Positions 4,878 through 62,888 of a stretch of DNA of 64,000 bases are shown piece after piece. This DNA comes from an uncultured bacterium. GTDB taxonomy: Bacteria; Babelota; Babeliae; Babelales; Vermiphilaceae. The notes below the pieces were generated by a model, which ran no database searches, was not told the origin of the DNA, and saw only the letters and a list, made by a program, of their open reading frames with translations. A program made the translations under genes and the position numbers. Position 1 is the stretch's first letter. Each line of letters opens with the position of its first letter. Location of the stretch: assembly GCA_963727255.1 (NCBI GenBank), contig CAVSFC010000002.1, positions 330,412 through 394,411 on the forward strand, written 5' to 3'.

Positions 4878-5900
4878 TTATCTATGATTTGCAAGAAGAG
4901 CCTTTACTTCTTGAATAAAAGGCGATTCTCCATTGAGAGATTCCATTCCAAAGACCATATCCAATACAGATGGAGACCTAGCAAAAGGCCGATAGTCTGG
5001 ATTTACACCATTTTTGAGAAATAGTTTTAAAAGATCGATATCTTCCTGTTTTATTGTTTTGCATGTTGCAAATATGGAACAGGGAGTTCCAATCTCAGTT
5101 ATTATGGCATAAGGATTAGCTCCATTTGCAAAGAGCATGTCAGCGATTTCAGTACAATAGGGAATTTTTTTATCCCATATTTGAACCAGGATTTCCAAGG
5201 GAAGCCTTCCCGCCGCATCTTTCTCATGCACCGTTTTAGGTGTCACGAATTTTTTTACTAAGGAAAGATCACAAAGCTCAAGCGCATGGGCAAGAGTTGT
5301 TGCTTTTGTTGCAAATAAAGCGGCAACCTTACTGAGTCCTTTGGTTTGATCTGGAGGCACGGTGCGAGCTACAGTCAAATTGAATGCTGCAGAGTTTTTT
5401 TCTTTTCGCTCCTTAAAAAAAGGATTTGCGCCTTTCGAGAGGAGAAATTCTAATGGTGGCAGATAGTCTTCGCGCATTGCGATACTTGTTGCAAATATTA
5501 TAGCAGAAATATTCTGGCCTGGTTTGCATCGATTTATAAACGCCTTTTTTTGAGTAAGAAATTCTAGAACAGGATTACTTGCTGCTGGGTTTTTTCGTTC
5601 AAAAGCATCGCAAAGAGCAGCTTGTAAGAGTGATGTCCCATTTTTATCCAGAGAATTTGGATCAATGCCTTCTTCATTTATTAGGTGTTGCAAACATATT
5701 AAATTGCTTCTCGATGCAGCAGTAAATGCGAGCGCTTTTAGCTGATTTTCTTCCGGCTCGGGAGTTGAAGTTCTTAAATCTCCGGCATTGATGAGTTTTA
5801 ATTTCATTTCTTTGTGTTTTTGTTCATCAACCATGCAAGAGAGCGAGAGCGTAAAAAGCGCAAATAGTGTTATAAAAATGGATATAGATTTTGTCTTCAT
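4878..5900 (-). CDS. Secreted divergent ankyrin-repeat-like protein
   Basis: 340 aa with a signal-like N-terminus (..TLSLSC|MVDE). Repeated DKNGTSLLQAAL, LLSKGANPF, DAAGRLPLEILV, LFANGANPY, FLKNGVNPDY. Paralogous to 11023-12126 and 12107-13240. Confidence 0.6.
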   Translation of the reverse strand: MKTKSISIFITLFALFTLSLSCMVDEQKHKEMKLKLINAGDLRTSTPEPEENQLKALAFTAASRSNLICLQHLINEEGIDPNSLDKNGTSLLQAALCDAFERKNPAASNPVLEFLTQKKAFINRCKPGQNISAIIFATSIAMREDYLPPLEFLLSKGANPFFKERKEKNSAAFNLTVARTVPPDQTKGLSKVAALFATKATTLAHALELCDLSLVKKFVTPKTVHEKDAAGRLPLEILVQIWDKKIPYCTEIADMLFANGANPYAIITEIGTPCSIFATCKTIKQEDIDLLKLFLKNGVNPDYRPFARSPSVLDMVFGMESLNGESPFIQEVKALLANHR

Positions 5901-5926
5901 AGTGGCTCAACTTAGTATGTTAATTT

Positions 5927-6232
5927 TTATTTTTTAAGAGTTTCTATGCGCTTTATAATATCAGAAACATCAACATTATGCGACTTTTCCAGATTTTTAA
6001 GGCGTTCTATAATCGATTTTCCGCTGGCATCGCTCAGTGTAGCGTTTTCTTTATCAAGAAGTGTATGCAAAAAATCAAAATTTTGATGATCAATTGCGGA
6101 AAAAATTAGATCCCTTATGAGCTCATTGGAATTTTGTCGTGGGCATCCAGGGCTGCTTATATCTCTATGTTCCGATGCATCAAGAGAGCAACTGCAAAAC
6201 AATATTAATACCAGTATCTTTACTATCATTAT
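5927..6232 (-). CDS. Small secreted hypothetical protein (start moved to the internal ATG with an AAGGGGGA RBS)
   Basis: MIVKILVLILFCSCSLDA signal-like N-terminus. The longer ORF to 6349 would overlap the upstream gene. Confidence 0.5.
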   Translation of the reverse strand: MMIVKILVLILFCSCSLDASEHRDISSPGCPRQNSNELIRDLIFSAIDHQNFDFLHTLLDKENATLSDASGKSIIERLKNLEKSHNVDVSDIIKRIETLKK

Positions 6233-6306
6233 CTGTCCCCCTTTTTTATTTAAAGTACAAAAATTGGGAACCAAAACGCAAAGATATTCCACTTTTCTGG
6301 GCTGTA

Positions 6307-7776
6307 TTATGGATTGTTTGAGCTTAAATCTCGGCGGCAGATTGGGCAATTGTTATTATTGCTCTGGCCAAGCTTTTTTAGGCAATCGCCGCAAAAAATA
6401 TGCTTACATTTTGTAACGCTGTCAGCAAAGTTTACAAAGCATACCGGGCAAACTGCATTGATTGTTTCAGGATCAATCTCATACTTAGCGATTAGTTGTT
6501 TTTTATAGGGGATGGGAGCCATTAAGAACTTTTCGAGAAGAAAAGGGTAATCGGTTAACAATTGTTTATCGGCGAATGCACAAATTATACTGAGTATTAA
6601 AGATGGTGGTTCGTTGGAGAGCACCGCAATGATTTTTTTGCAGCTAGCCTTATATACAAATGATTGAGACCCAGCAGCAATAGTATAATTATCGCCGCTT
6701 ATTGCTACCGTAGAAAAATGCTCACCTGGGGCATCGAATTGTGCTAGGCATGATTTATTTGCAAATTCTACTAACTTTACATGCCCATCCCAATGCCCGG
6801 TAACGGCATAATTTCCGCAACTACTTATTGCGGCCGCAATGATAGTCTTTAATTCTTTTGCGGTTTCTCCTTGACAATTTTCAGTCGATACCCGAACGAT
6901 TTCTTGGTTAGTTGCAAGAAGGCCGTATTTGCCATCAGGTGTAATATCAACGGAAACAAAATTTTTACGTTGACATTTAAAATCACTCAAAGTAGGTTTC
7001 TTATCCTTATAGTGAAATTTTTTCAATTTATTTTGATATGCGATCAACCCCCAGCTGCCATCATCGCTCATTGCAAATGCTATAGGAGTTTTTGAACGAT
7101 TAGGGAATGTATTTCTTTCCTTTCCATCACTTTTTACAATTTCTAGCTCCTCATCATAATGATGGAAGAGTGCGAATTTTCCACGAGATGTGAGAAGGAG
7201 CATTTTTACATTTTGTGAAAGTATGTCATTAGAACAAGTTGTGCCGGTATAGTTGTTATATTTACTCAGACAATTTTTTGAAGCTGTTAAAATAAGTCCC
7301 GGTTGATCCAAACATTTTGAGGCTATTACTGTTGACTTCAAGTAATTGATGGCGCAAACCAACCCTTTTTCCGTAAAATATGCCGATGTATTATTAGTTT
7401 TTGTAAGCGACATATGGCTGCCATCATGATCGAGCGATATTGATTGCGCTGGGCAGTTGATATGATAAAGTTGTGCGGAACCTGAATCAAAACTTTCTGA
7501 AATAGAAGTTGGCCCGATTTCTTCTTTTTGAATTTTCTGAACGTTTGCATTAACCAATCCGCTGATTTGATAGAACGTGCCTAGATATCTTTCAAGCAAG
7601 ATCTTGCTAATCTCCTGTTTTTTTTCATGAGAATCAGCACGTTGGCATAATTTTTCTAAATCCTGACCAAGTGGGAGAGCAAGCAATTCTTGTGCCAATG
7701 CTTCGGGAGTTTTGCTAGATTCCATAGCAAAAACTGAAGAACACACAAGAAGCACAATAAAAAAATAAGAAATCAC
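6307..7776 (-). CDS. Secreted WD40-like beta-propeller protein with a C-terminal C3HC4 RING finger (E3 ubiquitin-ligase-like)
   Basis: 489 aa, GTG start, signal ..SSVFA|MESS. Repeats include AMSDDGSWGLIAY, DITPDGKYGLLAT, SSCGNYAVTGHWDGHVKLVEF, AISGDNYTIAAG. C-terminus CPVCFVNFADSVTKCKHIFCGDCLKKLGQSNNNNCPIC = C-X2-C-X10-C-X-H-X2-C-X2-C-X11-C-X2-C. Confidence 0.75.
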   Translation of the reverse strand: MISYFFIVLLVCSSVFAMESSKTPEALAQELLALPLGQDLEKLCQRADSHEKKQEISKILLERYLGTFYQISGLVNANVQKIQKEEIGPTSISESFDSGSAQLYHINCPAQSISLDHDGSHMSLTKTNNTSAYFTEKGLVCAINYLKSTVIASKCLDQPGLILTASKNCLSKYNNYTGTTCSNDILSQNVKMLLLTSRGKFALFHHYDEELEIVKSDGKERNTFPNRSKTPIAFAMSDDGSWGLIAYQNKLKKFHYKDKKPTLSDFKCQRKNFVSVDITPDGKYGLLATNQEIVRVSTENCQGETAKELKTIIAAAISSCGNYAVTGHWDGHVKLVEFANKSCLAQFDAPGEHFSTVAISGDNYTIAAGSQSFVYKASCKKIIAVLSNEPPSLILSIICAFADKQLLTDYPFLLEKFLMAPIPYKKQLIAKYEIDPETINAVCPVCFVNFADSVTKCKHIFCGDCLKKLGQSNNNNCPICRRDLSSNNP

Positions 7777-11022: not shown

Positions 11023-12126
11023 TTATAGAGTTTGAGTTTTTGTGTCTGTTTTTTTACGTGCAGAGTGTTTATTAAATAGTTTTACAACTTTTTGAGCAGG
11101 CTCTTTTTTGAGTTCATCCAGACATCCAAGACATTTGTCATCATCTTCAGGTGTAAAGCAAGTGCATTCATTTTTTTTGGTATAATATTTGATTGCGCGT
11201 TTTGCTGGAGTCTCAGAAAGATCATTTTCAGGGTCTGGGTTAAGCAGATGATTAGCTTTGTTTGCTAAAAATAGCTGAACAATATCAGTATCATTATTCT
11301 CTATTGCATAATCGATAGCGCAGAGCAGAGGCAAACATTTTCTATCCTTTAGAATTCCTATCTGATTAGCATTTGCCTGATTTTTAAAAAGAAGTTTTAA
11401 AATTTCGATGGTTTCTTGTTTAAGGTGCGGATAGCAGTTGCTGGTAACGCGGATTAAGGGTGTAATTCCTGTGTTATCGGGCACATTTACTAGTTCAGGC
11501 TTCAGAAATTTCTCAATCGTAGCAATATCATGAGTTTCCATTGCTTCATGAAGATTTTTTGCACGTTCACAAAAACGCTTTAAGACAAGCATTCGATTTT
11601 TCTGTTGTTCAGCTAGCAAATCTCTTGTGGAAACTGCAAAATTAGCAGCTGTCCCCCCAGTTGGAGTTTGACAATCTAAAAATGGATTGCCATTTTTTTC
11701 CAAAAGGTATTCAAGTGGACCAAAATTGCTATTGTAAATTGCTTCACCAATCGTATATAGCAATGCTGAACCATGTGCAAACGGTGCAAGTTTATCTATT
11801 TTTGCCCCTTTAGATAGTAAATAATCCGGTACCGATCTATCAAAATCCGATTTCCAGGCCAACTTTTCAAGTGCATGTGAGAGTAAATTCCTTCCACAAT
11901 AAACTGTGTTCACATTTTGTTCATTTACATATTCTTTTAATGTATTCAGGTCACATTCTTGTGCAGCTTGAATAATTTTTTCTCTCTGCAAATTAAGTGG
12001 TGATAAGATACTTTGCAAATCTGCATCGGGGCCAAGGTGGATTACGGTAACATTTTTTTCCATGCTGTTAGCAGAAAAGGAAATTAATAAAAATAAAAGG
12101 GGAAGGCTAAATTGAGTGATCTTCAT
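11023..12126 (-). CDS. Secreted divergent ankyrin-repeat-like protein
   Basis: 367 aa, signal ..SFSANS|MEKN. LLSKGAKIDK, LLEKNGNPFLD, DNTGITPLIRV, LFKNQANANQ, FLANKANHLLNP. Confidence 0.6.
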   Translation of the reverse strand: MKITQFSLPLLFLLISFSANSMEKNVTVIHLGPDADLQSILSPLNLQREKIIQAAQECDLNTLKEYVNEQNVNTVYCGRNLLSHALEKLAWKSDFDRSVPDYLLSKGAKIDKLAPFAHGSALLYTIGEAIYNSNFGPLEYLLEKNGNPFLDCQTPTGGTAANFAVSTRDLLAEQQKNRMLVLKRFCERAKNLHEAMETHDIATIEKFLKPELVNVPDNTGITPLIRVTSNCYPHLKQETIEILKLLFKNQANANQIGILKDRKCLPLLCAIDYAIENNDTDIVQLFLANKANHLLNPDPENDLSETPAKRAIKYYTKKNECTCFTPEDDDKCLGCLDELKKEPAQKVVKLFNKHSARKKTDTKTQTL

Positions 12127-13240
12127 AGATTCCTTTAAAAGGGTCGAATATTTCGGTTTGCGTATATTTCTGAAAAAGATCTAGAATATCATGAGCGGTA
12201 GATGCATTTTTTTTAATTTGCACTAGTTCTTTTTCTTTTTTTAAATCTTCTTCGGTCAAATTTGCAGCTCTATACGCAAGCTCATATGCGGTTGGGCCAA
12301 ATTGAGGCGCCAGAGAATATTTGGGATCTCCTCCATGCTCGAGTAGAGGAGGAATCATGCCGGAATCCCCTTGCTGAATCGATACAATAGTAGCGAAGGC
12401 AATTATAGTTTGATAGGGATATGCCATATTCGCTATACCTGCATTCGGCTTGGCCCCTTTTGCTAATAATTTTTTTATTATTTCTATTGTTGCGATTTTA
12501 TTTGATAGATCGAATCTGGAAACTGCCCTGAAAAGGGGAGTTTTTGCATCTTCATCCTTCTCATCATTTGCTATAGAATTTGCAAACTCCTCAACTTTTT
12601 CAACGTCGCAAGCAAGAACAGCCTGCCGCAATGAGGTAATTTTGCTTTTAAAGAATTTAAGTACCTCATTTGCTTGGGGGTATATTTTGGGGTAGTTCGA
12701 AAAGTGTGAAACTGTATCGAAGAGGCTTGGTTTATTTACTGATGCAATAAAAGGATCTGCGCCCTGAGAAATAAAAAAATCAAGTGCACGGAAATTGTGT
12801 GTTTTGCTTTTTGCTGAAAGTAATGCAGCATACTCAAAAGCAGTCATTGCTTGGCCTGGTTCGGTTATATAAAGATAAGCTCCATTATCTAAAAGAAAGT
12901 TGAGCGTTTTTTCTATTGGGGCATTTGTATCTTTAAAACTTCTTCGCAATGTAGCGAATATGATTGGCTCTGCTTTACTGTTTATTTGATTAATATTTGC
13001 TCTATTAACCAGCTTTTTTAATTTTTCGATATTGCAAGCAAACGCTGCCCGGGAGGCCTCTTTGAAGCGCAAATCTTCCAAATGATTTGACATATAATAA
13101 GTGTTTTGAAGATCTTCCTCGAATTCTTTAAAATTGCCGGTACTGGTAGTTCTTGACAAGCGTATAATATAATTAGGTTTTTCCATTGAAGTTATATCTG
13201 AAAAATAGAGTAAAATTAGGGGAATAAAAACAAAGATCAT
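12107..13240 (-). CDS. Secreted divergent ankyrin-repeat-like protein (start set at the ATG at 13240; the ORF-track start at 13285 is TTG)
   Basis: Signal MIFVFIPLILLYFSDITS|MEKP. LLDNGAYLYI, FISQGADPF, DEDAKTPLFRAV, LLAKGAKPNA, LLEHGGDPKY. Overlaps the next paralogue by 20 nt. Confidence 0.6.
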   Translation of the reverse strand: MIFVFIPLILLYFSDITSMEKPNYIIRLSRTTSTGNFKEFEEDLQNTYYMSNHLEDLRFKEASRAAFACNIEKLKKLVNRANINQINSKAEPIIFATLRRSFKDTNAPIEKTLNFLLDNGAYLYITEPGQAMTAFEYAALLSAKSKTHNFRALDFFISQGADPFIASVNKPSLFDTVSHFSNYPKIYPQANEVLKFFKSKITSLRQAVLACDVEKVEEFANSIANDEKDEDAKTPLFRAVSRFDLSNKIATIEIIKKLLAKGAKPNAGIANMAYPYQTIIAFATIVSIQQGDSGMIPPLLEHGGDPKYSLAPQFGPTAYELAYRAANLTEEDLKKEKELVQIKKNASTAHDILDLFQKYTQTEIFDPFKGIYEDHSI

Positions 13241-13323: not shown

Positions 13324-16136
13324 ATGAATAATTGTATACTAAGAATAGCAAAAAATCAGCTAGTAATTATTTTTGGGTTAACATGCTTTAGCTTGACTGC
13401 ATTTACCGATATGAAAATTGAATCACCATCGCAAGATTTAATTATAAATAATCAGGAATATATGAATAGTATCCCCGAACAAAACCATCAGCCACATGTA
13501 TATAAAAGAGTGCTTGAAAATGGAATGACTATATTGGTCCGCGTAGTCCACACATTGCCCAAAGTTTCACTGCAAATTTGGTATAATGTTGGATCGAAAG
13601 ATGAAAAAACGAATGAAAAAGGAATTGCGCATCTGATTGAACATATGATCTTTAAGGGAACTAAGCTCCTCTCCGAATCCGATATTAATGTGATTACGCA
13701 TATGCTTTCAGGATCTACCAATGCATTTACTTCATATGATTATACCGGGCTATTTATTTAATATGCCGGTGCAAAATTGGCATCAAACATTAGGCCATAT
13801 TAGCTGATTGCATGCAGAATGTTACCTTTAAGGATGATCATTTAATTCTGAAATGAAAGCGGTAATTCAAGAATTAAAAATGTATCGCGATAATTATCCG
13901 CGACAGCTTAATTATGGAGTTGATGGCAGCATTATTCCCTGATCATCCATACCATTATCCGGTAATTGGGTTTAAGCAAGATCTGTTTGATGTGCATGCA
14001 GATCGATTGCGCGCATTTTATAAAAAACATTATTGGCCAAATAATGCAACATTGGTAATTGTTGGAGATGTTGATCCTGAAGATGCATTTGCTCAGGCAA
14101 AAAAATATTTTGAAAAAATTCCTGCAAATAAAAATTATAAAAAAGAACAATTTTATTTTAATAAAGATATTGTTTCTCATTCGGTAACTCTCTATCGTGA
14201 TGTACAAGCAGCCGTTTGCCGTGATTGGATATATGATTCCGGGAGCACAAACAAAGAATGAACATTTGCTTGATGTAGTTGCACTGATCCTGGGAGCGGA
14301 AAAGGATCGCGGTTATACCGAAAATTGGTTGATGAATTGCAGATGGTGACTGATTTGGGCGCTTATCCGTGGCTTCTTCTTTGAGCATGGGATTTTCTTT
14401 ATTATGTTTGAGCCAAAAAATGTTGCAGATATTCCGCAAATTCAGGAAATAATTCAAAAAGAGATCGATGAAATTATAAAAAATGGGCTTACCGATCAAG
14501 AATATACTCGTGCGCTTAAGCAAGCATTGCATGCAATTATTATAATTTGCTTGAAAGCATAGAAGCTCAAGCGCGTGAAATTGGAAAAGCCTATTTGGCA
14601 ACCGGCGATGAAAATTTTGCATTTCATTTCTTAGATAAACCAAAAAAAGAAGTAGAAACAGAGATAAAAAAACTCTTGGCAAATTATTTTAAACCATCAT
14701 TGATGAATATCGGTATTATTGTTGCCACTTTCTGAAGAAGATAAAAAAGAATGGGCAGCGATGCAAAAAAAATCTGATGAATATGATGCTAAATTTCTTG
14801 GCAGCACGGCCACGCACAACGCCGATTGAACCGCCATCATATGCAAAAAAAATTAAAGGTAAAAGAGGCGACTCATTTTGATTTTCCAAAATATAAAACC
14901 ATGATGCTCAATAATGGAATCAAGGTGCTTTACTATGATAATCCCAATACGCCAAAAATAGATTTAATTTTAGAATTTAAGGCACGAAATTATTATGATA
15001 GCGAAGCGTTGCCGGGCATTTATAATTTTGTTTCAACAATGTTGCTAGAAGGAACAAAAAAATATACTGCCACGCAATTGGTTGATGAACTTGAGATGCG
15101 CGGCATGTAATGTAAGTGTTTCTCCGGGCGTTATCGTTATGAGTATGCTTGCGGCTGATTTTGAGAAAGGGCTTGAGCTTCTTAGAAGAGATTATTGCAC
15201 AATCCACGATTTGATGAGAAAGAAATTGAAAAAGTTCGCGAGCAACTTCTTGCGGAAATAAAACATTTTTGGGATGATCCGCAGCAGCTTTTCAAATCAA
15301 TTGGTAGAAGAATATATCTATAAAGGTCATCCGTATTGCCAAAAATATTTTAGGCACGGAAGAGTCTATTAAAAAAATAACAAAAAAAGATCTGATAGAG
15401 TTTCATAAGAAATATTTTAGCCCGCGATGGAGCGCGCTTGGCAATTGTTGGTGATATTGGTTCTTATGATTTAAAAAATATTTTAGAAAAGACTATTGGA
15501 TCCATTGAAAGGGCCAGAAGGTTGAAGCGATTGAATTTCCCTGAATTGCAGCCAGTAAAGCCATGTGAAAAGATTCATCCGATTAATCGTGATCAAGCGG
15601 TGTTATGTTTTGCAGGGCTTTCTGTTGAACGTAAAAATCCTGATTTTGATAAATTTTTTATTTGATCAGATCTTTGGCGGCGGAGCACTTGGTTCATTGC
15701 ATTCGAAGTTATATCAATTGCGTGAGCAATCAGGCTTATTTTATACTATAAGCGGATCATTGATTTCAGGTGCAAATGAACAGCCGGGCATGGTGATTGT
15801 GAAAACAATTGTCTCGCTTGATCGTCTTGCATGAAGCAGAAAAAGCTATAAAAGATGTTATTGATAAAGCGGTTAATGAAATTATCTGATGAAGAATTTT
15901 TAGAAGCAAAACATGCGATTATAAATTCAATTGTGAATAATTTTGCAACCAATCAGGCATGGCTCAGGTTTTCTTAAGTCTTGATCGATATGGATTTCCA
16001 CCTGATTATTATGATACTCGAGCAGAAAAAATTTCTGGCTATTACACTTGATCAAATGAAAGAGGCAGTTAAAAAAGTGTTGCGCAATGAATCGATGTTT
16101 ACGCTTAAAGTGGGCAGATTGGAAGAGAAGAAATAG
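13324..16136 (+). pseudogene. Second M16-family peptidase (paralogue of 7902-10535) broken by >10 single-base indels
   Basis: Fragments in all three frames align colinearly with the intact copy. Examples: ..LENGMTILVRVVHTLPKVSLQIWYNVGSKDEKTNEKGIAHLIEHMIFKGTKLLSESDINVITHMLSGSTNAFTSYDYTG.., ..MKAVIQELKMYRDNYP.., ..FPDHPYHYPVIGFKQDLF..HYWPNNATLVIVGDVD.., ..GIKVLYYDNPNTPKIDLILEFKARNYYD.., ..FGGGALGSLHSKLYQLREQSGLFYTISGSLISGANEQPGMV.., ending ..FTLKVGRLEEKK*. The N-terminus carries a signal/anchor that the intact copy lacks. Confidence 0.8.
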
Positions 16137-17095: not shown

Positions 17096-17914
17096 ATGCA
17101 GCCACCTTCAATCAACGATTTTAAAAAAATCATTTGGAACTATTATACAACGCAAGGCCGCCTGTTTGATTGGCGTCATGTTGATGATCCATATAAGGTA
17201 TTCATCTCAGAAGTAATGCTTCAGCAAACACAAACGGTTCGTGTTGCGCAAAAATATCCCCTTTTTATTGAAGCGTTTCCTGATTTTAAAATACTTGCAG
17301 ATGCTCCATTAAAAGAGGTGCTCCTGCAATGGCAAGGACTCGGTTATAATCGGCGTGGCATGTATTTGCAACGCGCTGCGCAAACCATTATTCAAGAGCA
17401 TGCTGGTATTCTTCCCAATGATCCGGAAGTTTTGATAAAACTGCCCGGGATTGGAAAAGCGACCGCTGCATCAATTTGCGCATTTGCTTTTAACTCGCCG
17501 ACCATTTTTATTGAAACCAATATTCGGGCTGTTTTTATTCATTTCTTTTTTGCAAATAAAGATTCAGTTCATGATCAGGAAATTATGCCACTGCTGGAAG
17601 AGAGTTTGGATAAGGAGCATTCAAGAGATTGGTATTATGCTTTGATGGATTATGGGGTAATGTTAAAAAAGACTCTGGTGAATCCAAGTAGAAAAAGCAA
17701 ACATCACGCTAAGCAATCTAAATTCGAAGGGTCTGATAGGCAAATTAGGGGCATGATTCTGAGAATTTTAACTCAGCAACAGGCCCCAATTTTATCGGAA
17801 GTTCTTATTGCGCTCACCAAAAAAGATTCCGTGCGTGTTTCAAAAATTATAGATCAGATGGTTAAAGATAAGCTAGTTTTAGTTACTGGCCCTCTAATAG
17901 AGCTAGGTATTTGA
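17096..17914 (+). CDS. HhH-GPD base-excision DNA glycosylase (MutY/EndoIII-like), with no visible Fe-S cluster cysteines
   Basis: VFISEVMLQQTQTVRVAQKYPLFIEAFPDF..LLQWQGLGYNRRGMYLQRAA..LIKLPGIGKATAASICAFAF. No C-X6-C-X2-C-X5-C motif downstream. ATG at 17096 preferred over the TTG at 17075. Confidence 0.75.
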   Translation: MQPPSINDFKKIIWNYYTTQGRLFDWRHVDDPYKVFISEVMLQQTQTVRVAQKYPLFIEAFPDFKILADAPLKEVLLQWQGLGYNRRGMYLQRAAQTIIQEHAGILPNDPEVLIKLPGIGKATAASICAFAFNSPTIFIETNIRAVFIHFFFANKDSVHDQEIMPLLEESLDKEHSRDWYYALMDYGVMLKKTLVNPSRKSKHHAKQSKFEGSDRQIRGMILRILTQQQAPILSEVLIALTKKDSVRVSKIIDQMVKDKLVLVTGPLIELGI

Positions 17915-18419
17915 CCAAGGCAGCGCTTTCAGCGGCTCTGTGTTCTTCGAGGCTGCAAAATTTTGCAGCGCATCCAGGATAATCGTAGACTGCATCTTTC
18001 ATCACGAGTCGTTCTTCATTTTTAGTGATTTCTATTCTCTCTATTTCTGCAATTTCTAATTCCATCGAGTGGGCAAGTTCCATAAGTTTTTCTTCTAAAA
18101 GTTGGTTAATTTTGAATTCTGTTTGTGGATTATTAGTTTTTAGTAGAGGTAAAGCATCGATGAATACCTGCTTTACACTTTCCAATTCCAATCTATCCCA
18201 GCTTCTTCGTTCTGGGGATCTTGATTTTGGACTTGCTTCCGCGCTGCTCGGTAAAGTACTGCTGCCGCTACTGTGCGCGCTTAGACTTGTCGATTCTCGC
18301 TCTTCAAATGCGATTTTCTTAATCGTAATACGTTCGCTAACTTGTGGTACTACCATTGCAAAAAAAACTGAATTAACCGTTAACAATAAAAATAAAAAAA
18401 TAGAATGAGTAAGATTCAT
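17883..18419 (-). CDS. Secreted hypothetical protein (Ser-rich linker, acidic helical C-terminus)
   Basis: 178 aa, signal ..NSVFFA|MVVP. Its 3' end overlaps the glycosylase gene by 32 nt (convergent). Confidence 0.55.
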   Translation of the reverse strand: MNLTHSIFLFLLLTVNSVFFAMVVPQVSERITIKKIAFEERESTSLSAHSSGSSTLPSSAEASPKSRSPERRSWDRLELESVKQVFIDALPLLKTNNPQTEFKINQLLEEKLMELAHSMELEIAEIERIEITKNEERLVMKDAVYDYPGCAAKFCSLEEHRAAESAALVKYLALLEGQ

Positions 18420-19143: not shown

Positions 19144-19848
19144 TTAGTGTAATTGTCTCAATAAAATTTCCAATTTCATTAATAATGGCTCTGTTGAAGA
19201 AAGAAAATCAATATAATTTTGAATGATTAACGTTGCCCCGAGGACTCTTTTGCTTTTTTCCATATCAGTAATGTCCAAATTTTTATTAAGTGCCAAAAAA
19301 TGGCCAAGTTTTGTACGCTCATCGGTATTAGCGGGGGGGGGATTAATTACTAGCCCATAGCGTCTCATTTCAGCTTTATATGCCCAAAAAATTTTAGATG
19401 CTAATTCACGGGGATCATTGTTTTTTTTAAAATTTTCTTGTGCTTGCGCAAGATTATGGTCTTTGCATATTTTTTCAAATATAACTTGTGAACAGTATTC
19501 TTTTGATGAGTTATCGAGAGCAAATAAATTCGGTATGACGTAATTATTGCCGTATTTGAGATCGGTTGCGAGGGCTTTAAAAGCGCGCAACGCATTATTT
19601 GCTTCGGGCGCTGCAGAAATACGGTTTATTTCTTCTGCAATTACCAGAGATTGTGCAAAAAGATCATGTACATGGGTATATTTTTCAAACAATTCTCTTT
19701 TGATAAGGAAATCGCGGAATAAGCCTTGTTCTACAATTGGATTGTGATTTGTTAATTCACTAATCCACACATCAAGATCGTTTTTTTCGCTTTCCATGCC
19801 ATTGAGCATTTGGATGCATATGAGAGATGCAAGAATAAATATGCGCAT
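19144..19848 (-). CDS. Secreted hypothetical protein
   Basis: 234 aa, signal MRIFILASLICIQMLNG|MESE. Confidence 0.55.
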   Translation of the reverse strand: MRIFILASLICIQMLNGMESEKNDLDVWISELTNHNPIVEQGLFRDFLIKRELFEKYTHVHDLFAQSLVIAEEINRISAAPEANNALRAFKALATDLKYGNNYVIPNLFALDNSSKEYCSQVIFEKICKDHNLAQAQENFKKNNDPRELASKIFWAYKAEMRRYGLVINPPPANTDERTKLGHFLALNKNLDITDMEKSKRVLGATLIIQNYIDFLSSTEPLLMKLEILLRQLH

Positions 19849-22777: not shown

Positions 22778-23152
22778 TCAGTTTTTGGCAGGAGTTTTGG
22801 ATTCCAAATGGTCTATTAATTCTGGCATCTCATCGCTATCATAGAAAAAAGCATCGGGATTTGCTTTTATATTGCTCACTAAATTATAATGATTAACTGA
22901 AGCAGATTGTGATGGTTTAGGATTTGTTCTAAAACGTGATAATTTTCGCGCTGAAAGTGATTCGGTATTTTCATCAAATTCATGCCAGTCATCATGATCG
23001 TCATGATCTTTATATGTTTTAAGAGCTTGCGGTTTTTGTGTATCGGCTTCGATTGATTTTTTTTCTTCATCAAATTTTTTTTGGGTATCTTGATTCATCG
23101 TATGGCATGTGGCTGCAGATATCACCATTAAGATTGCTAATAAATTTCTCAT
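22778..23152 (-). CDS. Small secreted acidic/His-rich hypothetical protein
   Basis: 124 aa, signal ..SAATCHT|MNQD. Contains a KDHDDHDDWHEFDE stretch. Confidence 0.5.
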   Translation of the reverse strand: MRNLLAILMVISAATCHTMNQDTQKKFDEEKKSIEADTQKPQALKTYKDHDDHDDWHEFDENTESLSARKLSRFRTNPKPSQSASVNHYNLVSNIKANPDAFFYDSDEMPELIDHLESKTPAKN

Positions 23153-26839: not shown

Positions 26840-27163
26840 ATGAAGAATCAAAATATAAAAACTCTTATTTTAGGCAGTGCGTTATTTGGATCAATCAGTT
26901 ATGCCATGGAGCTATCTGAAACCAATAACTGGACTATTAACTCTTTTAGTGAATTTGCAAATCGCATAAATGGCGTGAAAACATATCCGGAGCATTATTA
27001 TGATTTTACTCATGATGAACAAGGTAAGCTCATTGATGATAAAGATAAATTTAAGGAGAAAACAAAAGATTTAGATAGCGCATTAGATCAACAATTTGGG
27101 ATATTTCAAAAAAAATGCATAGAGCTCTTCTCTTGCAACAACAAGAAAGTGAAAAGCCGATAG
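26840..27163 (+). CDS. Signal-peptide-bearing ORF, probably the 5' part of the downstream phosphatase gene (joined by +1 A in the A8 run 27108-27115)
   Basis: MKNQNIKTLILGSALFGSISYA|MELS. With nine A's the frame reads ..FGIFQKKMHRALLLQQQESEKP.. into 27115-28689. Confidence 0.45.
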   Translation: MKNQNIKTLILGSALFGSISYAMELSETNNWTINSFSEFANRINGVKTYPEHYYDFTHDEQGKLIDDKDKFKEKTKDLDSALDQQFGIFQKKCIELFSCNNKKVKSR

Positions 27164-56464: not shown

Positions 56465-57355
56465 GTGAATGTTTTAATGAAAAAACAGCTATTTCTTTGG
56501 TTGTTTTTATCATGTGTTGCATTTGAAATGCATGCATGGGAAAACTATACAACCACAGATAATAGTTGTAATGAATGCGATTTAGGAGGCTTTAGCATCC
56601 AAATTCAAGCCGGTATTGCTCCGGTTATTTGGTCTAAAAGAAACAACTTTAGTGTCATAAGTTGTAACTCATCGTTAGGGTGCCCTACTACGGCAAGCCC
56701 TGTTATTCCTTTGTTTGAAATGCCAAAATTCAATAAATTATTCAAACTTCCCTGGACGATTGGCGGCTTGATTGGATATTGGCTAAGCGATTGCGATCAA
56801 GTGTATATCGAAGGTAATTATCGTCAGGCAAAAGCTAAAAATAATTATACCATTGCTCCAACGATAACCCTTCCTCTTTTTGCACTTCAGCCGCAATTTG
56901 TATTTGGCACTACAACAAAATATAAATTCTATGATTTCTTTGTAGGCGCACGCCATTATTTTGATATGTGCTGGTGCGATTCATCATTTTTTCTAGGCGG
57001 GCAAGTAGGATTAGTTCATCATAAAGAAGTAGATTTCACGCTTACTGTTTCCTCGCTTACCAATACCTGTAATCCAGCGTATACCACCGGCTGCAATGTT
57101 CTTTTTGGAAAAAATACTCGAATTGCAGGTGGCGCGAGCATCGGATTTGACTATAGTTTCTGCGGTTGCTTTGGGTTTATAATAATGGCAGAATTCATTG
57201 CAACATGCGGTCCATGCGGAAATCAACTCATTACCTTTGCTCCGTGCACAGCGGATTTAGTATTGCCTGAATTAAGACCTGATGCCTTCATTGTTGGTAG
57301 TATTGGTAATGAATTTTATTTCCCTATTACCGTTGGCCTCGAATATAAATTTTAA
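56465..57355 (+). CDS. Cys-rich outer-membrane beta-barrel protein (porin/MOMP-like)
   Basis: GTG start 5 nt after AAGGAAGGAG. Signal ..SCVAFE|MHAW. Alternating beta-strand pattern, about 20 Cys, C-terminal ..ITVGLEYKF (terminal Phe signature). Confidence 0.6.
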   Translation: MNVLMKKQLFLWLFLSCVAFEMHAWENYTTTDNSCNECDLGGFSIQIQAGIAPVIWSKRNNFSVISCNSSLGCPTTASPVIPLFEMPKFNKLFKLPWTIGGLIGYWLSDCDQVYIEGNYRQAKAKNNYTIAPTITLPLFALQPQFVFGTTTKYKFYDFFVGARHYFDMCWCDSSFFLGGQVGLVHHKEVDFTLTVSSLTNTCNPAYTTGCNVLFGKNTRIAGGASIGFDYSFCGCFGFIIMAEFIATCGPCGNQLITFAPCTADLVLPELRPDAFIVGSIGNEFYFPITVGLEYKF

Positions 57356-57379: not shown

Positions 57380-58045
57380 ATGAAATTATTTAATAAAAAT
57401 AAAGTATTCGCACTAGCAATACTTTGCCTGTTTGCTTCTCTCGTGCAAGCATCATGCCCAGTAACATGCCCAACCGGCGTAGGCTCTCCACGTTTTTGCA
57501 GCTTAGCAGTAACAGGAGCTTTAAGCGCAGGTAGCTTATGCGTTCAGGGAAATGAGTCAGTAGGTGGCAGCTTATCAGTATGCGGAACCGGAACCAGCTT
57601 TGTATCACTAACGGGTGGAGCGGGATTAACGGGCCCTATTCCTTTCTCAACCCTATCAGCATTCGGATTTGCTTATGATCCTGCTATTGCTCAAGCTGTT
57701 ACGGCCGGAAACAATACAGTCGATTTGACTCTCAGCAGCGCTCTCTTAAATACAACGTTTGCAGCAGATGCATTAACGCCGTTGATTTCTGGAATCTATT
57801 TAATTCGTTATATTGTTGATTTAAACCCAACTGATATCGGGGCTGCCGGTACATTCTCAATTTTTGTGAATGGCGCGACAGTTGCAGGTAGCCAATTTGC
57901 TGTAACTGCTACTGAAACCGGAGCAGTAGTTGGGCAAGCTGTTGTTGCTGTTGTTGCTGGGCAATCAGTTATTATTAATTTTGCTTCTGCCTCAGCTGGT
58001 ACAATAACAGGAACGGCATCATTGGCATTAGAAAAAATCGGCTAA
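57380..58045 (+). CDS. Secreted protein with a BclA-C-terminal-domain-like (C1q/TNF-like jelly-roll) domain and a Cys-rich N-terminus
   Basis: ..ISGIYLIRYIVDL.., ..FSIFVNGATVAGSQF.., ..ASLALEKIG* parallel Bacillus BclA ..TGFYKITVIAN.., ..IQVNGVPVPGTG.., ..ASIIIEKVA*. No collagen GXY repeats. Confidence 0.55.
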   Translation: MKLFNKNKVFALAILCLFASLVQASCPVTCPTGVGSPRFCSLAVTGALSAGSLCVQGNESVGGSLSVCGTGTSFVSLTGGAGLTGPIPFSTLSAFGFAYDPAIAQAVTAGNNTVDLTLSSALLNTTFAADALTPLISGIYLIRYIVDLNPTDIGAAGTFSIFVNGATVAGSQFAVTATETGAVVGQAVVAVVAGQSVIINFASASAGTITGTASLALEKIG

Positions 58046-58114: not shown

Positions 58115-58723
58115 TTACTTATCTTCAGATTTATTTTCCTCTCTAATTATAACCGGAATTTTGGTTATTGGCTTTTTACGTAACGGTATGCAAGCAACCA
58201 GTTTTTGCATTGCTTGATCATACTCAATGTGCGATTCTTCAAGCGCTATTTCGCTGCTTAGTCTTTGAGCGTTTTGGCAGTAACTGCTGATCAAAATCTG
58301 TGCTTTATTATTTTTTTGATCCTGTTGCTGTTTCATCAGATGATTAAATCCAACAGAAATTAAATGGCGATCAGTCTGAATTTGCAGGGATCCTACCGGA
58401 GTTGAGATTGTCATGGTATTAGTATCTTGATCCATGGATGCATCAAAAGTTTTTTCTTTAATATCAAGAGGGTAAATGCTGATTTCTAAGCAATTATTTG
58501 CTTTATTTTCATGGATTGTAAGTACGGGCGAATTGATATCATTATTTGGTGGAGCAGTGAACGCCATTTTCATCTCTTCATGCATGCGGTTCATGCGTTG
58601 CTCAAACCGCATCTGCATTTCATCGATCTCATTAATAATTTCTTCAAAAAATGATTTTGGTGCCGCAGCGCAGGCAGTGCCGATAAGTAAAGAAAGCAGC
58701 AATTGTTTATTAAGACTGAGCAT
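58115..58723 (-). CDS. Signal-peptide-bearing Hsp20/alpha-crystallin-like protein
   Basis: ..SPVLTIHENKANNCLEISIYPLDIKEKTFDASMDQDTNTMTIS.. and ..IEYDQAMQKLVACIPLRKK fit the ACD pattern (..vDi.E..d.y.l...lPG..ke.i.v.. / ..nGvL.i.lPK). N-terminus LLLSLLIGTACAAAP. Confidence 0.45.
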   Translation of the reverse strand: MLSLNKQLLLSLLIGTACAAAPKSFFEEIINEIDEMQMRFEQRMNRMHEEMKMAFTAPPNNDINSPVLTIHENKANNCLEISIYPLDIKEKTFDASMDQDTNTMTISTPVGSLQIQTDRHLISVGFNHLMKQQQDQKNNKAQILISSYCQNAQRLSSEIALEESHIEYDQAMQKLVACIPLRKKPITKIPVIIREENKSEDK

Positions 58724-60135: not shown

Positions 60136-60696
60136 TTACTTCGGTAAATAGATCATTGAGCCCTTAGTAATATCCTCTTTGGTGAGATTCCCCTTTAATG
60201 CCAAACCCCGTTCATTGGAGGTCTTGCTCCAATCAAAAGGTAAAATTCCCTCAGCTGATCTAAATCCAAGAAGTGGCCCCGTTTGCGGCCCAAAGATATA
60301 ACCATTCGCTTCAATAGATGTTTTTCCGAAGAGCGATTTGAGCGTCTCTTTAAATTTCTCTTTTTCAGCCGGAAGCCCGACGCGAATGATAATTTTTTTG
60401 TTTGGCTTAATAATATAGGTGTCAATCCGATCGCCAGCAACTGGCATTTTGCCCAATTTTATTGCAATGATAGTTGGCTTGCTTGTGTCGATAGTTTTAG
60501 CCGGGGTCCATTTGCCTGGGCGCAATTCCTCAAATTTTTTATGGCTTGCCTCTTCGGGAGAATTGCTCACGCTGTAATAGAGCGGATCATTGTGTTTGTT
60601 CCAAAGCTCAAAGTTTGAATCAGCGATTAAAGGAAATGCAAAGCCACTCATGGATAAAAAGATTGCGATAAAACTATTTCTTATTATATGCTTCAT
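60136..60696 (-). CDS. Secreted hypothetical protein
   Basis: 186 aa, MKHIIRNSFIAIFLSMSGFAFPLIA signal. Confidence 0.55.
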   Translation of the reverse strand: MKHIIRNSFIAIFLSMSGFAFPLIADSNFELWNKHNDPLYYSVSNSPEEASHKKFEELRPGKWTPAKTIDTSKPTIIAIKLGKMPVAGDRIDTYIIKPNKKIIIRVGLPAEKEKFKETLKSLFGKTSIEANGYIFGPQTGPLLGFRSAEGILPFDWSKTSNERGLALKGNLTKEDITKGSMIYLPK

Positions 60697-60840: not shown

Positions 60841-60865
60841 AGGGAGCCGTGCTCCCTTTTTTTTT
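60841..60865. terminator. Orphan terminator-like hairpin in a divergent intergenic region
   Basis: A9 - agggagc-cgt-gctccct - T9. No annotated gene ends here. Confidence 0.45.
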
Positions 60866-60954
60866 ACTTTTTCAATAATTCTAATGCTGAACTAGCTAGC
60901 ATGTTTTACAATCTCTGATACCCTTATAAAAAGCGCATATAAACGGAACTTTTC

Positions 60955-61689
60955 ATGGATAAAAAAAATAAACCACAAGGCGAACTCATTTACGGGATTC
61001 ACCCGATTATCGAGGTGCTTAAGGCAAAACGCCGCAAAGTAATCTCAATTTACACCACGCGTCCAACTCCTAAGGCTTGGGCCAAAATTGAAAAATTATT
61101 GCCAGAACGGCCCATTCCCATTCAATATGTGAGCCGCGATGTTTTGAGTAATATGGCAAAGACTGATGATCATCAAGGGGTTGTTGCCTGGGTGCAACAT
61201 TTTCCTTTCCGCAGCAAGGCCTTTGATCCTGCTAAGCACAAATTCTTAGTGCTCCTTGATGGGATTCAAGATCCTCGGAATGTGGGAGCGATTTTGCGAT
61301 CTGCCTATTGCACGGGAGTTGATGGAGTAATTTTAGTAGAACGGTTTGCGGCTCCTTTAAATTCGGCCGCCTTAAAATCTTCGGCAGGCCTTGCAGAGCA
61401 TCTAGAAATCATGGTTGCTCAAACGACTCCCGCAATCATCCAAAATCTTAAAGCTGCCGGCTATACTATCTATTGCGCTGCTTTTGGCGGAAAAAATGCT
61501 CAAGAAGTTGCATTCGAGCAACCAATGTGCGTGGTTATTGGCAGTGAAGGGGAAGGGATTATACCGGCAGTCTTAAAAGCCGGAATTCAGGTTACCTTGC
61601 CCCAAAGAACGGCCGAAATTTCTTATAATGCCTCTGTTGCTGCAGGAATTTTGCTCTTTTTGATCGGAACCCAGCAGAAGAAAATCTAA
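60955..61689 (+). CDS. rlmB: SpoU/TrmH-family rRNA 2'-O-methyltransferase (RlmB-like)
   Basis: 244 aa. N-terminal L30e-like ELIYGIHPIIEVLKA. SpoU motifs LLDGIQDPRNVGAILRSAY, VVIGSEGEGI, LPQRTAEISYNASVAAGILLF. Confidence 0.8.
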   Translation: MDKKNKPQGELIYGIHPIIEVLKAKRRKVISIYTTRPTPKAWAKIEKLLPERPIPIQYVSRDVLSNMAKTDDHQGVVAWVQHFPFRSKAFDPAKHKFLVLLDGIQDPRNVGAILRSAYCTGVDGVILVERFAAPLNSAALKSSAGLAEHLEIMVAQTTPAIIQNLKAAGYTIYCAAFGGKNAQEVAFEQPMCVVIGSEGEGIIPAVLKAGIQVTLPQRTAEISYNASVAAGILLFLIGTQQKKI

Positions 61690-62888
61690 AAATGTATTAG
61701 AGTTTCCAAATCTAAGATCTCAGCGCTGCTGAAGGTGGGATGCCAGAGAAGATATTTGCTATCGGAGCTGCAAGAGCTTGTCCTGCTATTCGATTCAGGC
61801 TTGCGGATGCTTTTTAGTAAAATAATTGTCTTGGGGTTTACGATATCGATATCCTTCTCATCCTCAAGAATGAGATATTTTTCATCAGGAGAAAAATAGG
61901 TAGATTTGGGGGACCATTCCCTCAAAGTGACCAGAGATTTGATATCGGCACCGCTTTGTGCAGAGCATTTCCAGCACATAGAATCTTCTAGCATGATGCA
62001 CAGATCAAGATTTTTTGTTGAGGCTAAATGTCGGCCTGATTTCTCATTTTTTCTTCCCGCTGGAAAAATAAGCTCGCCTATCCCCTTATCATCTTTAATT
62101 TGAATTCGTGAGAAGTCAGGATTAAAAAGAAATGAGCTGAGACCAGCAGACAAACATTCATGGCTAATTTTTTTTAGGGCAGTAAAGTTCTTTGTTTCAA
62201 AAAAAGATAGTGTGATGCCATTTTTTATTATCAATTGCGTGCCTTCGGTATTAAAGAGTGGCGAGTTTCCTTCCAATGCTGCAATTTCTTTCTTGTTCTT
62301 CAAATTAATGATACTAACCACTTGATTATTTTTTTTTCTGATTTCACAAGCTACTAAACTGTCATCAGGACTAAAAATAGTTGAAAATTTATTTTTAACA
62401 AAGTAAGCATCGGAAGAATCTTTAAGGGCGAGAACTTCTTCTTCTGCTGAAATTTGATGAACTTCTAAACTATCTTTATTGGGCTGGTATACCACATATG
62501 TATCTTTCGGGCTAATGCCGGGGATATCAAAAAGTACTGTTTTATATGTTTTTAATAGTTTGCCCGAAATTGTACTCCAGATATGTAAATTATTTTCTGG
62601 GTAACGTGCGGTTTCCAGGCCCCAATAATAGTTGCCCTGCGGGCTAAATCTATGTGAAAGCAATTGTCGCCTGTTTATTTCAAGCGAATGTTCCCACTCG
62701 ATCTTATTTTGGCTTATTTTATAAAGTGCTAGTGCGTATTCAGTTGCTACCATCAATTGCGAATTTTTCGGATGCCAGCATGCATGATTGATTGATGATA
62801 GATAAGAATCAGACTTTAAGCGCTTCGGGGTTTTCTCCATTGCCATAAGCACAGGTGAAAAAATGAAGAGTAATAATACAATGTACAT
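61686..62888 (-). CDS. Secreted beta-propeller-like repeat protein (tandem paralogue 1)
   Basis: 400 aa, signal ..FSPVLMA|MEKT. Recurrent FSPQGNYYW, ISPKDTYVVY, FSPDDSLVACE, FNTEGTQLII, YFSPDEKYLILED, SSDSKYLLWHP. Confidence 0.6.
   Translation of the reverse strand: MYIVLLLFIFSPVLMAMEKTPKRLKSDSYLSSINHACWHPKNSQLMVATEYALALYKISQNKIEWEHSLEINRRQLLSHRFSPQGNYYWGLETARYPENNLHIWSTISGKLLKTYKTVLFDIPGISPKDTYVVYQPNKDSLEVHQISAEEEVLALKDSSDAYFVKNKFSTIFSPDDSLVACEIRKKNNQVVSIINLKNKKEIAALEGNSPLFNTEGTQLIIKNGITLSFFETKNFTALKKISHECLSAGLSSFLFNPDFSRIQIKDDKGIGELIFPAGRKNEKSGRHLASTKNLDLCIMLEDSMCWKCSAQSGADIKSLVTLREWSPKSTYFSPDEKYLILEDEKDIDIVNPKTIILLKSIRKPESNSRTSSCSSDSKYLLWHPTFSSAEILDLETLIHF

Follow-up and report, generated by a model that had tools for sequence, protein, structure and literature searches.

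A recurrent methionine at the predicted signal-peptide junction of accessory secreted proteins in Candidatus Dependentiae

Many of the exported proteins encoded in a 64,000-nucleotide stretch of DNA from an uncultured bacterium (contig CAVSFC010000002.1, positions 330,412 to 394,411; hereafter, the window) carry a methionine immediately after the small residue at which their signal peptide is predicted to be cut, and this methionine is usually followed by an acidic or amide residue. The junction methionine is real, statistically overwhelming and evolutionarily conserved. The source organism belongs to Candidatus Dependentiae (TM6/Babelota; Babeliales), widespread obligate intracellular parasites of protists in whose genomes up to 44% of genes have signal peptides and ankyrin proteins number about a hundred per genome (PMC6561590, PMC4378268, PMC4776705). 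Most of these ankyrins have a signal peptide, and the host cytoplasm is their presumed place of action; type II is the sole secretion system that has been detected in the phylum (PMC4378268, PMC4776705, PMC6561590).

We propose that the motif represents ordinary Sec-type signal peptides that obey a lineage-specific rule, [L/I/S]-x-[A/S/G] followed by Met-[Glu/Gln/Asp/Asn], with cleavage predicted between the two parts, and judging from sequence we give this reading a probability of about one half. Below, an arrow (↓) marks the predicted cut.

Frequency and form of the junction methionine

Depending on the criteria used, about 34 to 39 open reading frames (ORFs) in the window begin with a basic n-region and a hydrophobic core. 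In 26 of some 34 such N-termini the junction reads [L/I/S]-x-[A/S/G]↓M, with E, Q or N next in 21, and about eight are without a junction methionine. The preliminary description of this DNA had placed a methionine at the predicted cleavage site of about 28 secreted proteins; the 26 were re-derived here, and its counts of 28, and of 22 continuing with E, Q or N, are reached when the genes at 53250 and 62900-63940 are included. The residue at -1 in the 26 is Ala in 10, Ser in 6, Gly in 4, Cys and Thr in one each and another in 4, while +2 is Glu in 16, Gln in 4, Asn in 1, Val in 2, His in 2 and Lys in 1. Counted from the start of the longest ORF the methionine is residue 17-43; counted from the best start codon it lies 17-30 residues in.

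Methionine at +1 is rare in signal peptides generally, and among 332 signal-peptide-like N-termini from other phyla the control rate was 8%, against which 26 of 34 has a binomial probability of 4e-22. The stricter form, a small residue followed by M-[EQDN], was present in 16 of 39 window N-termini and in 3 of the 332 controls (P = 7e-15). Under a looser rule, in which a small residue and then methionine had to fall within 14 residues of the hydrophobic core, the proportion was 51% in the window, 45% in the related contigs L002-L005, 29% in other Babeliales contigs, 18% in L006-L009 and 8% in the controls (n = 332). A -3/-1 predictor blind to methionine placed the residue at +1 at 11 of 32 sites in the window, 11 of 33 in the close relatives L002-L005, 1 of 21 in L006-L009 and none of 104 control sites (Fisher P ~3e-8), the last being taken from Omnitrophota and Clostridia loci retrieved by the same TyrS query; this bears out the earlier suggestion of a lineage-specific signature of exported proteins. 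In those controls that had the methionine, hydrophobic residues usually came next, a sign of a transmembrane helix. Every related contig examined showed the motif. A metagenome scan with an alignment of an M50-like membrane protein (A1) returned only a generic pattern; 79 of its 80 loci are distant relatives, presumably of other phyla, and they served as extra controls only.

The 26 proteins fall into 19 BLAST families and common 5' DNA is found only between the tandem paralogues at 40005 and 40863, which rules out a shared 5' cassette or paralogy as the cause, as had already been argued. Their Pfam classes comprise seven ankyrin proteins, a WD40+RING protein, a beta-propeller, a zinc-finger protein, an M16 fragment, a likely phosphatase, an outer-membrane-like protein and many ORFans.

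In an alignment of 57 cases anchored on the methionine, the -3 position is Leu in 32%, Ser in 18%, Ile in 18% and Ala in 11%, the -1 position is Ala in 42%, Ser in 19%, Gly in 19% and Thr in 9%, and +2 is Glu in 54%, Gln in 18%, Asp in 11% and Asn in 5%, which together make 88%, with hydrophobic residues almost absent. If the cut is where it is predicted, these +2 residues would put the mature N-termini in the NatB class, in which the initiator methionine is retained, as was first noticed in the preliminary description. Lys occupies +3 in 21% and Pro +4 in 19%, and D, E, Q and P are enriched in the 30 residues after the methionine. The methionine itself sits at a median of residue 20 (80% range 17-27).

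What precedes it is unremarkable. The n-region is basic, with a median of 2 K/R within 4 residues; the best 8-residue Kyte-Doolittle window reaches at least 2.0 in all cases; the h- and c-regions together have a median of 15 residues and the signal peptide a median of 19; and the methionine class does not differ from the other signal peptides in length, charge or hydrophobicity. Ordinary junctions of the lineage expose Q, E, D or A, and the methionine class resembles them with a Met placed in front; Gln is common both at +2 of this class and at +1 of the exported PNFELWNKH family. A twin-arginine signal is ruled out, RR being present in 1 of 55 methionine-class and 0 of 69 other signal peptides, as is a type IV prepilin leader, given that the hydrophobic segment lies before the methionine and the mature start is polar or acidic. 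The sequence L-x-[AG]-M does resemble a lipobox, but methionine at +1 is not diacylglyceryl-modifiable, and a lipoprotein (signal peptidase II) signal was discarded.

A property of cargo families and its possible purpose

When 189 signal-peptide-like proteins from 16 Dependentiae loci were clustered, methionine status followed the family. Among families found at five or more loci, 5 of 43 members have the methionine, and several of these calls are dubious, whereas accessory families have it in all members; in the window no ankyrin, RING, propeller or zinc-finger protein that has a signal-peptide-like N-terminus is without it. The beta-propeller family has a small residue followed by M-E/D/Q/N in 12 of 12 members (the window, L005, L129, L130, L132, L134, L135, L140, P0056, P0060, P0079 and P0092), and in an alignment of 10 of its sequences, at 17-49% identity, the junction methionine is among only seven invariant columns. 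In contrast, about 50 database members of the core PNFELWNKH family share the junction ...A↓Q/E/A-PNFELW, a methionine being the exception in only one of them (Fisher P = 4e-12 for 12/12 against 1/~50), and no junction methionine was found among about 10 orthologues of the conserved exported protein at 58115. The GH81 glucanases of L130 and L132, likely true extracellular enzymes, are also without it.

A single-sequence search with the 61686 beta-propeller protein against 1.84 billion representatives gave about five true relatives, so few because the family evolves too fast, and all have the methionine; a profile search with a further alignment (A3) added P0096 only. Positional homologues of the proteins at 45461, 50399 and 61686 still present a signal peptide and ME at about 24% identity. 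These comparisons indicate that the methionine is under purifying selection in accessory, eukaryote-like families. Since core envelope proteins do without it, the general peptidase does not require methionine and the residue is a property of the cargo class. That it is selected in accessory families yet dispensable for many substrates of the same peptidase argues against both a neutral relic and a simple peptidase preference.

The division is not perfectly clean. It had been claimed that envelope-type proteins lack the motif, and this holds for the proteins at 58115 and 57380, but the Cys-rich outer-membrane-like protein at 56465 has AFE↓MH, and the Pal/OmpA-like N-terminus is disrupted. The labels 'Hsp20-like' and 'BclA-like', formerly attached to 58115 and 57380, have no Pfam support.

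Under the proposed rule, the preprotein would be translated from an upstream start codon preceded by a Shine-Dalgarno site, exported by Sec and cut by signal peptidase I directly before the methionine, so that the mature protein would begin Met-Glu... or similar. Selection would keep the rule in accessory, fast-evolving, eukaryote-like secreted proteins (ankyrin, RING, beta-propeller, zinc-finger, phosphatase and ORFan), and core envelope proteins would not follow it. As to purpose, proteins delivered to the host may gain an N-terminus like that of a native eukaryotic protein, with an initiator methionine kept before an acidic or amide residue. The arrangement would also preserve the acidic early-mature region favoured by Sec export and avoid exposing Gln, Glu, Asp or Ala, the +1 residue left by the lineage's other signal peptides. 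Q, E, D or N at the N-terminus acts as an N-degron and destabilises a protein in the eukaryotic cytosol, initiator methionine is retained before D, E, N or Q, which is the NatB substrate class, and methionine followed by a bulky hydrophobic residue is itself a degron. We consider a host-compatible N-terminus to be the purpose of the rule with a likelihood of about one-third.

Several points weigh against the rule and this purpose. Ala, Ser and Gly at +1 are also stabilising under the classical Arg/N-degron rule, and evasion of N-degrons alone does not explain methionine. NatB acts co-translationally, so that acetylation of an imported protein is uncertain. Non-effectors have the methionine too, namely the outer-membrane-like 56465, one PNFELWNKH member and an M16 copy. 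The Dependentiae DNA sampled amounts to about 300 kb, mostly from two syntenic regions, and cleavage sites were placed throughout with a home-made -3/-1 heuristic. Finally, the lineage often starts genes without a Shine-Dalgarno site (32 of 110 genes that encode no signal peptide have one), and a missing site does not rigorously exclude internal initiation.

A bolder form of the proposal, which we hold to be improbable, is built on analogy with PEXEL/HT of Plasmodium (RxLxE/Q/D), which is processed by plasmepsin V in the endoplasmic reticulum, is cleaved and N-acetylated, and leaves a processed N-terminus x-E/Q/D. Met-[Glu/Gln/Asp/Asn] might then be a dedicated host-delivery N-terminus of Dependentiae effectors, the counterpart of processed, acetylated PEXEL, whose reader (host NatB, N-degron factors or bacterial NAT-like GNATs) would decide stability or routing. 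If so, the effector repertoire of a largely uncultured phylum could be read directly from sequence.

Genes for GNAT acetyltransferases with signal-peptide-like N-termini have a conserved place beside ftsA/ftsZ (L140:106-630, L140:4806-5429, L129:342-1019 and L132:492-1031), those of L140, a 99.6%-identical contig that continues the window, lying 5-10 kb past its right end. A profile of four such enzymes matched archaeal Ard1 first in the PDB (2e-13), then Naa50, Naa60, Naa30, RimI and Naa20, with other GNATs intermixed and all below family cut-offs. An exported NAT-like enzyme in a lineage with NatB-class secreted N-termini is suggestive; against a link, GNAT families cross-hit, the junctions of these GNATs are themselves ordinary, and no periplasmic acetyl-CoA is expected.

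The main rival to a host-compatible N-terminus is a sorting tag on the bacterial side, whereby Met-[E/Q/D] at the N-terminus would be read in the periplasm and would lead to crossing of the outer membrane by type II, vesicles or another route, untagged proteins staying in the envelope. Such a tag would account for the way in which the motif divides accessory from core envelope families and for its extreme N-terminal position, like that of lipoprotein sorting signals. Only type II has been reported, and yet hundreds of signal-peptide proteins are presumed host-bound (PMC4378268, PMC4776705). However, the GH81 glucanases, probably secreted, are without the methionine, the outer-membrane-like 56465 carries it, and two residues hold little information. 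Furthermore, type II substrates are recognised folded and we know of no linear signal in them. We regard a sorting tag as unlikely.

Less probable still is that only processing is involved, the lineage's signal peptidase I cutting best with methionine at P1' and young, fast-evolving genes having drifted to this optimum. The Bacteroidetes Q-rule is an earlier case of a P1' bias peculiar to one phylum (PMC5837995), and methionine is met sporadically in envelope families as well. However, core and presumably abundant envelope proteins almost never have it, as the counts for PNFELWNKH (1/~50) and 58115 (~0/10) show, and the strong +2 bias to E/Q/D/N together with invariance within families points to a constraint on the product.

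Start sites and the origin of the methionine codon

Whether the hydrophobic extension is translated was examined in 50 motif genes from 15 Dependentiae loci, scoring a Shine-Dalgarno-like tetramer 4-17 nucleotides upstream. Such a site precedes 35 of the 50 signal-peptide starts (21 of 26 in the window genes) and none of the 50 internal ATGs, compared with 25 of 170 other internal Met codons of the same genes; among genes of the lineage without a signal peptide only about 30% have one. A makes up 41% of the 20 nucleotides upstream of signal-peptide starts and 44% of those before other genes, against 22% before the internal ATG, where 62% is pyrimidine. Lys is the second residue at 24 of 50 signal-peptide starts, whereas the internal methionine is followed by E in 31, Q in 10, D in 6 and N in 3. 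Non-exported genes of the lineage begin MK, MI, MD or MN; real starts thus favour K, I, D and N, and Glu as second residue is atypical.

The extension is also kept as protein. The window's beta-propeller N-terminus MYIVLLLFIFSPVLMA↓MEK corresponds to MYIVLLLLVFSPLLMA↓MEK in a 54%-identical homologue, and ankyrin homologues at 38-49% identity keep signal peptide and methionine although the residues that follow are unalignable. An orthologue at 85% nucleotide identity (L136) retains 17 of 19 signal-peptide residues, and conservation at the amino-acid level is likewise seen in P0056, P0002 and P0003. On these grounds the upstream extension is taken as a real Sec signal peptide that is translated. 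The internal ATG shows none of the features that mark the lineage's start sites. The preliminary description had noted that an extension neither conserved nor translated would make the methionine simply the true start; conservation as protein and the Shine-Dalgarno-like sites at 35 of 50 starts speak otherwise.

Most public gene calls on the related contigs include the signal peptide and four begin at the internal ME (L001:5018-5599, L129:4497-5771, L134:6122-7402 and protein P0001, in calls from JGI, ENA, NCBI and Logan). Such calls delete the signal peptide, and secretome estimates for Dependentiae metagenome-assembled genomes (MAGs) may be too low.

The same data bear on a dual start, a possibility raised in the preliminary description, in which the internal ATG would be a second initiation site, yielding a leaderless form in the cytoplasm with the same sequence as the processed protein. 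The junction residue is always encoded by ATG, E/Q/D/N at +2 would retain the initiator methionine and so make the two forms identical, some gene callers choose this ATG (P0001, L001:5018, L129:4497, L134:6122), and many genes of the lineage start without a Shine-Dalgarno site. However, the absence of Shine-Dalgarno-like sites at the internal ATGs falls below even the other internal Met codons, the upstream region is pyrimidine-rich and poor in A, and Glu is an unusual second residue; no one-step secretion system that could use a cytoplasmic isoform has been reported (PMC4378268), and at least 19 unrelated families would all need to have this arrangement. A dual start is thus disfavoured, and we think it very unlikely. 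A Kozak-like context at the internal ATG (purine at -3, G at +4) follows trivially from Ala or Gly codons at -1 and Glu at +2 and is not independent evidence, and GTG or TTG at the junction codon, expected in about 16% if it were a start, gave 2-3 candidates against at least 39 ATG, a difference that is not significant.

About equally improbable, or slightly more so, is a frozen relic of gene birth, in which genes derived from a host or virus were extended at the 5' end to encode a signal peptide, their former start codon merely persisting. Enrichment of the motif in eukaryote-like and ORFan genes would be expected of this, and the junction does look like a methionine inserted ahead of a normal +1 Q, E or D. 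However, the methionine is invariant in an old syntenic family that has only 7 invariant columns and also in ankyrin paralogues at 25-30% identity, the +2 spectrum is unlike that of real starts, and the genes have no shared 5' cassette. An annotation artefact, in which the methionine would be the sole true start behind an untranslated AT-rich leader, is effectively refuted: a few public calls do begin at ME, but the extensions are open over 17-27 codons, have a start codon with a Shine-Dalgarno site ahead, and show basic n-regions, small -3/-1 residues and conservation as protein.

Genes of the window and comparison with known systems

The window has a G+C content of 38% and contains housekeeping genes (TyrS, ValRS, RuvA, YbeY, MnmE, alanine racemase and photolyases) with many small exported proteins interspersed (Table 1). 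The nearest relatives of its TyrS are from uncultured MAGs at 83-89% identity, followed at 66-71% by genomes labelled 'Candidatus Dependentiae bacterium', the complete Noda2021 among them, and other phyla at 49% or less. The exported protein at 60136-60696 has 52 homologues, one of which is labelled Candidatus Babeliales; the contigs retrieved for seven of the homologues share gene order with the window. Metagenome contigs L001, L140-L142 and L137 are 99-99.6% identical to parts of the window.

Table 1. Genes of the window with the junction methionine, followed by exported proteins without it
Feature	Coordinates	Strand	N-terminus at the predicted junction	Met codon
Ankyrin protein	4878..5900	-	MKTKSISIFITLFALFTLSLSC↓MVDEQK	5832-5834
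WD40-like + RING protein	6307..7776	-	MISYFFIVLLVCSSVFA↓MESSKT	7723-7725
Ankyrin protein	11023..12126	-	...LISFSANS↓MEKNVT	12061-12063
Ankyrin protein	12107..13240	-	...LLYFSDITS↓MEKPNY	13184-13186
N-terminal piece of second, fragmented M16 peptidase copy	13324..13761	+	...SLTAFTD↓MKIESP	13411-13413
ORFan	17883..18419	-	...VNSVFFA↓MVVPQV	18354-18356
ORFan	19144..19848	-	MRIFILASLICIQMLNG↓MESEKN	19795-19797
ORFan	22778..23152	-	...ISAATCHT↓MNQDTQ	23096-23098
ORFan	24278..24739	+	...FINGLYG↓MQSPET	24341-24343
107-aa signal-peptide ORF	26840..28689	+	...GSISYA↓MELSET	26906-26908
ORFan with C-terminal hydrophobic segments	29171..30580	+	...VSTNSTA↓MEIIDA	29231-29233
ORFan	30588..31085	-	...MTVNIFA↓MQTLDE	31029-31031
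Small basic ORFan, paralogue of 35617	35194..35559	+	...VTSSYA↓MQLQQN	35248-35250
Small basic ORFan	35617..36024	+	...SYLSICA↓MESSEN	35686-35688
ORFan	36077..36505	+	...QTSFSMVS↓MEPAQA	36140-36142
Ankyrin protein	37952..38701	-	MKKLFIVASLLWPIQSHP↓MESQLL	38645-38647
Ankyrin protein	38719..39984	-	MKKIFLSSLTFFTVSSITS↓MEIGSN	39925-39927
Ankyrin protein	40005..40787	-	MKKFFFMSCILSAASLAG↓MQQEKD	40731-40733
Ankyrin-array paralogue	40863..41534	-	MKKLFLISCTLFAISLQG↓MEKKQL	41478-41480
ORFan	45461..46342	-	MRFYILSLFFLFKTSYM↓MEKPNL	46289-46291
ORFan	50450..51085	+	MKKSLSILFLLMHSCSFS↓MEVDPR	50504-50506
ORFan	51094..51831	+	MKKLIISFLLFAQTLCA↓MEHVAI	51145-51147
ORFan starting MNIVEKEE	53190..53714	+	in-frame signal-peptide remnant upstream, GFLLLTILVSLSAKA↓MNIV	
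ORFan	53788..54639	+	MNCIRILCLLLLINCKTQS↓MEKPAQ	53845-53847
Zinc-finger protein	54653..55090	-	...STGYSLSA↓MHIDQV	55031-55033
Cys-rich outer-membrane-like protein	56465..57355	+	...LSCVAFE↓MHAWEN	56528-56530
Beta-propeller protein beside SpoU methylase gene	61686..62888	-	MYIVLLLFIFSPVLMA↓MEKTPK	62838-62840
Paralogous beta-propeller gene, 5' end beyond window	62900..64000	-	ORF 62900-63940	
Core Dependentiae exported protein, PNFELWNKH family	60136..60696	-	ordinary junction ...A↓Q/E/A...	
Conserved exported protein (earlier 'Hsp20-like'), no Pfam match	58115..58723	-	TACA↓AAPKS	
Exported Gly/Ala/Thr-rich protein (earlier 'BclA-like'), no Pfam match	57380..58045	+	LVQA↓SCPVT	
Signal-peptide protein without Met	44952..45464	-	...FQSQA↓LTESE	
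Clostripain-family (C11) peptidase, hydrophobic N-terminus	2288..3625	-	no junction Met: LLFG↓STNPKEKK	

Relatives of individual genes vary in the residues around the junction. Homologues of the 11023 ankyrin protein retain signal peptide and methionine (P0002, TSP↓MNSD; P0003, IKA↓MDGS), the positional homologue of 45461 at 24% identity (L003:4601-5488) has ILG↓MEIDD, and members of the 50450 family read CIG↓MEVP in L004 and AKS↓MQTI in L128, the public L001 gene call in this family beginning at the internal methionine. The L136 orthologue of the zinc-finger protein at 54653, 85% identical, has SLSA↓MHTNQV. For 56465 the L003 orthologue has AAG↓MQAFDG and an L129 relative ALA↓SPGL. The truncated propeller gene at 62900 has a full-length copy in the 99.6%-identical contig (L140:10001-11401), with the N-terminus MYIVLLLFIFSPMLTG↓MEKL (SPMLTG↓MEKL). 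The 107-aa ORF at 26840 and a 524-aa calcineurin-like phosphoesterase ORF (27115-28689) overlap in different frames; a frameshift has probably broken up what was a single gene (26840-28689) for an exported Ser/Thr-phosphatase-like protein. At 53250 the remnant AKA↓MNIV has no start codon after the stop and differs by two single-base indels from the 99%-identical L001.

Such damage is not confined to exported proteins. ValRS (46914-49422) and other housekeeping genes are broken into 2-4 ORFs, and the DEAD-box helicase (24785-26493), the second M16 peptidase (13285-16244), GatB (31101-32503) and MnmE (41536-42820) are also split. In the 99%-identical L001, ValRS is intact at a length of 871 aa. 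Relative to that contig the window carries seven indels of one base each, five within ValRS and the others at 53328 and 53360, none of them homopolymeric; they are either sequence or assembly errors in the window source or very recent decay. Indels thus account for the damaged N-terminus at 53250, and possibly also for the state of 26840/27115 and of Pal.

Further observations concern the exported repertoire. The WD40-like protein at 6307-7776 ends in a C3HC4 RING finger and is a candidate secreted mimic of an E3 ubiquitin ligase. The ankyrin genes form two clusters, a head-to-tail array of four at 37952-41534 and three genes flanking an M16 peptidase gene at 4878-13285; in L006 and L007 the glycosyltransferase and mnmE genes stand without the array between them, which makes the array a lineage-specific insertion into a conserved gene order. 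A GC-rich intergenic stretch (34955-35185) precedes the 35194 gene, and 35018-35109 (93 nt) within it has a second copy at L140:8753-8845 with 96.8% identity; it folds slightly better than shuffled sequence (z = -2.3), has no Rfam match and may be a small RNA or a repeated element. Also conserved, and of the non-methionine class, are AAA+ ATPases with signal-peptide-like N-termini in L128, L130 and L134-L137 (e.g., L137:186-1217 and 4876-5994). An exported ATPase is odd, the destination compartment being without ATP, and proteins of the same type, AAA and Ulp1-like, have been noted in Babela (PMC4378268).

No published description of a +1 methionine rule was found, including in the Babela, TM6 comparative and Chromulinavorax papers, which give signal-peptide statistics only, although coverage of the literature was incomplete and an earlier description is possible. 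Relative to the preliminary description, the assignment to Dependentiae, the extent of the rule across Babeliales contigs, its family specificity (accessory yes, core envelope no) and the precedent of the Q-rule are new. A rule of two residues by which accessory eukaryote-like cargo can be told from the core envelope would provide a sequence criterion for the effector set.

Among known systems, PEXEL and the oomycete RxLR offer a functional analogy only: as here, a short extra motif behind an ordinary signal peptide marks host-delivered proteins, but they belong to eukaryotic parasites, their motif lies 15-30 residues after the signal peptide and not at the cut, and there is no homology. Similarly, 88% of the predicted mature N-termini would fall in the NatB class (Met-Asp/Glu/Asn/Gln) if cleaved before methionine; however, NatB acts on nascent ribosomal chains, whereas Dependentiae proteins would arrive folded. 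Leaderless isoforms from alternative in-frame initiation likewise have an in-frame ATG at the boundary of targeting peptide and mature protein, but the ribosome-binding features were not found at the internal ATG here, and the pattern recurs in at least 19 unrelated families.

Canonical Sec/signal peptidase I signal peptides (von Heijne -3/-1) match in their n-, h- and c-regions, length, small -1/-3 residues and acidic early mature region; they differ in that +1 methionine, absent from the 104 control sites, is the majority residue here. Lipoprotein codes (the Lol +2 rule and the Bacteroidetes lipoprotein export signal) follow the logic of a sorting tag in that the residues after the cut decide fate, but they depend on a lipidated Cys at +1 and signal peptidase II, and methionine is not lipidatable.

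The nearest precedent is the Q-rule of Bacteroidetes, where Gln is at +1 in most signal peptidase I substrates and is cyclised to pyroglutamate; this stabilises extracytoplasmic proteins but does not serve to sort them (PMC5837995, PMC10653852). Both rules concern a phylum-restricted first mature residue after a normal Sec/signal peptidase I signal peptide, and in neither does the peptidase itself require the residue; the Q-rule is believed to help keep exported proteins stable. The methionine rule differs in the residue, in constraining the second position (E/Q/D/N) too, in its phylum and in that glutaminyl cyclase chemistry is impossible. Moreover, the Q-rule spans most signal peptidase I substrates, whereas the methionine rule spans accessory eukaryote-like families and skips the core envelope. 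It would be the second phylum-specific rule for the residue that signal peptidase I exposes, after that of the Bacteroidetes.

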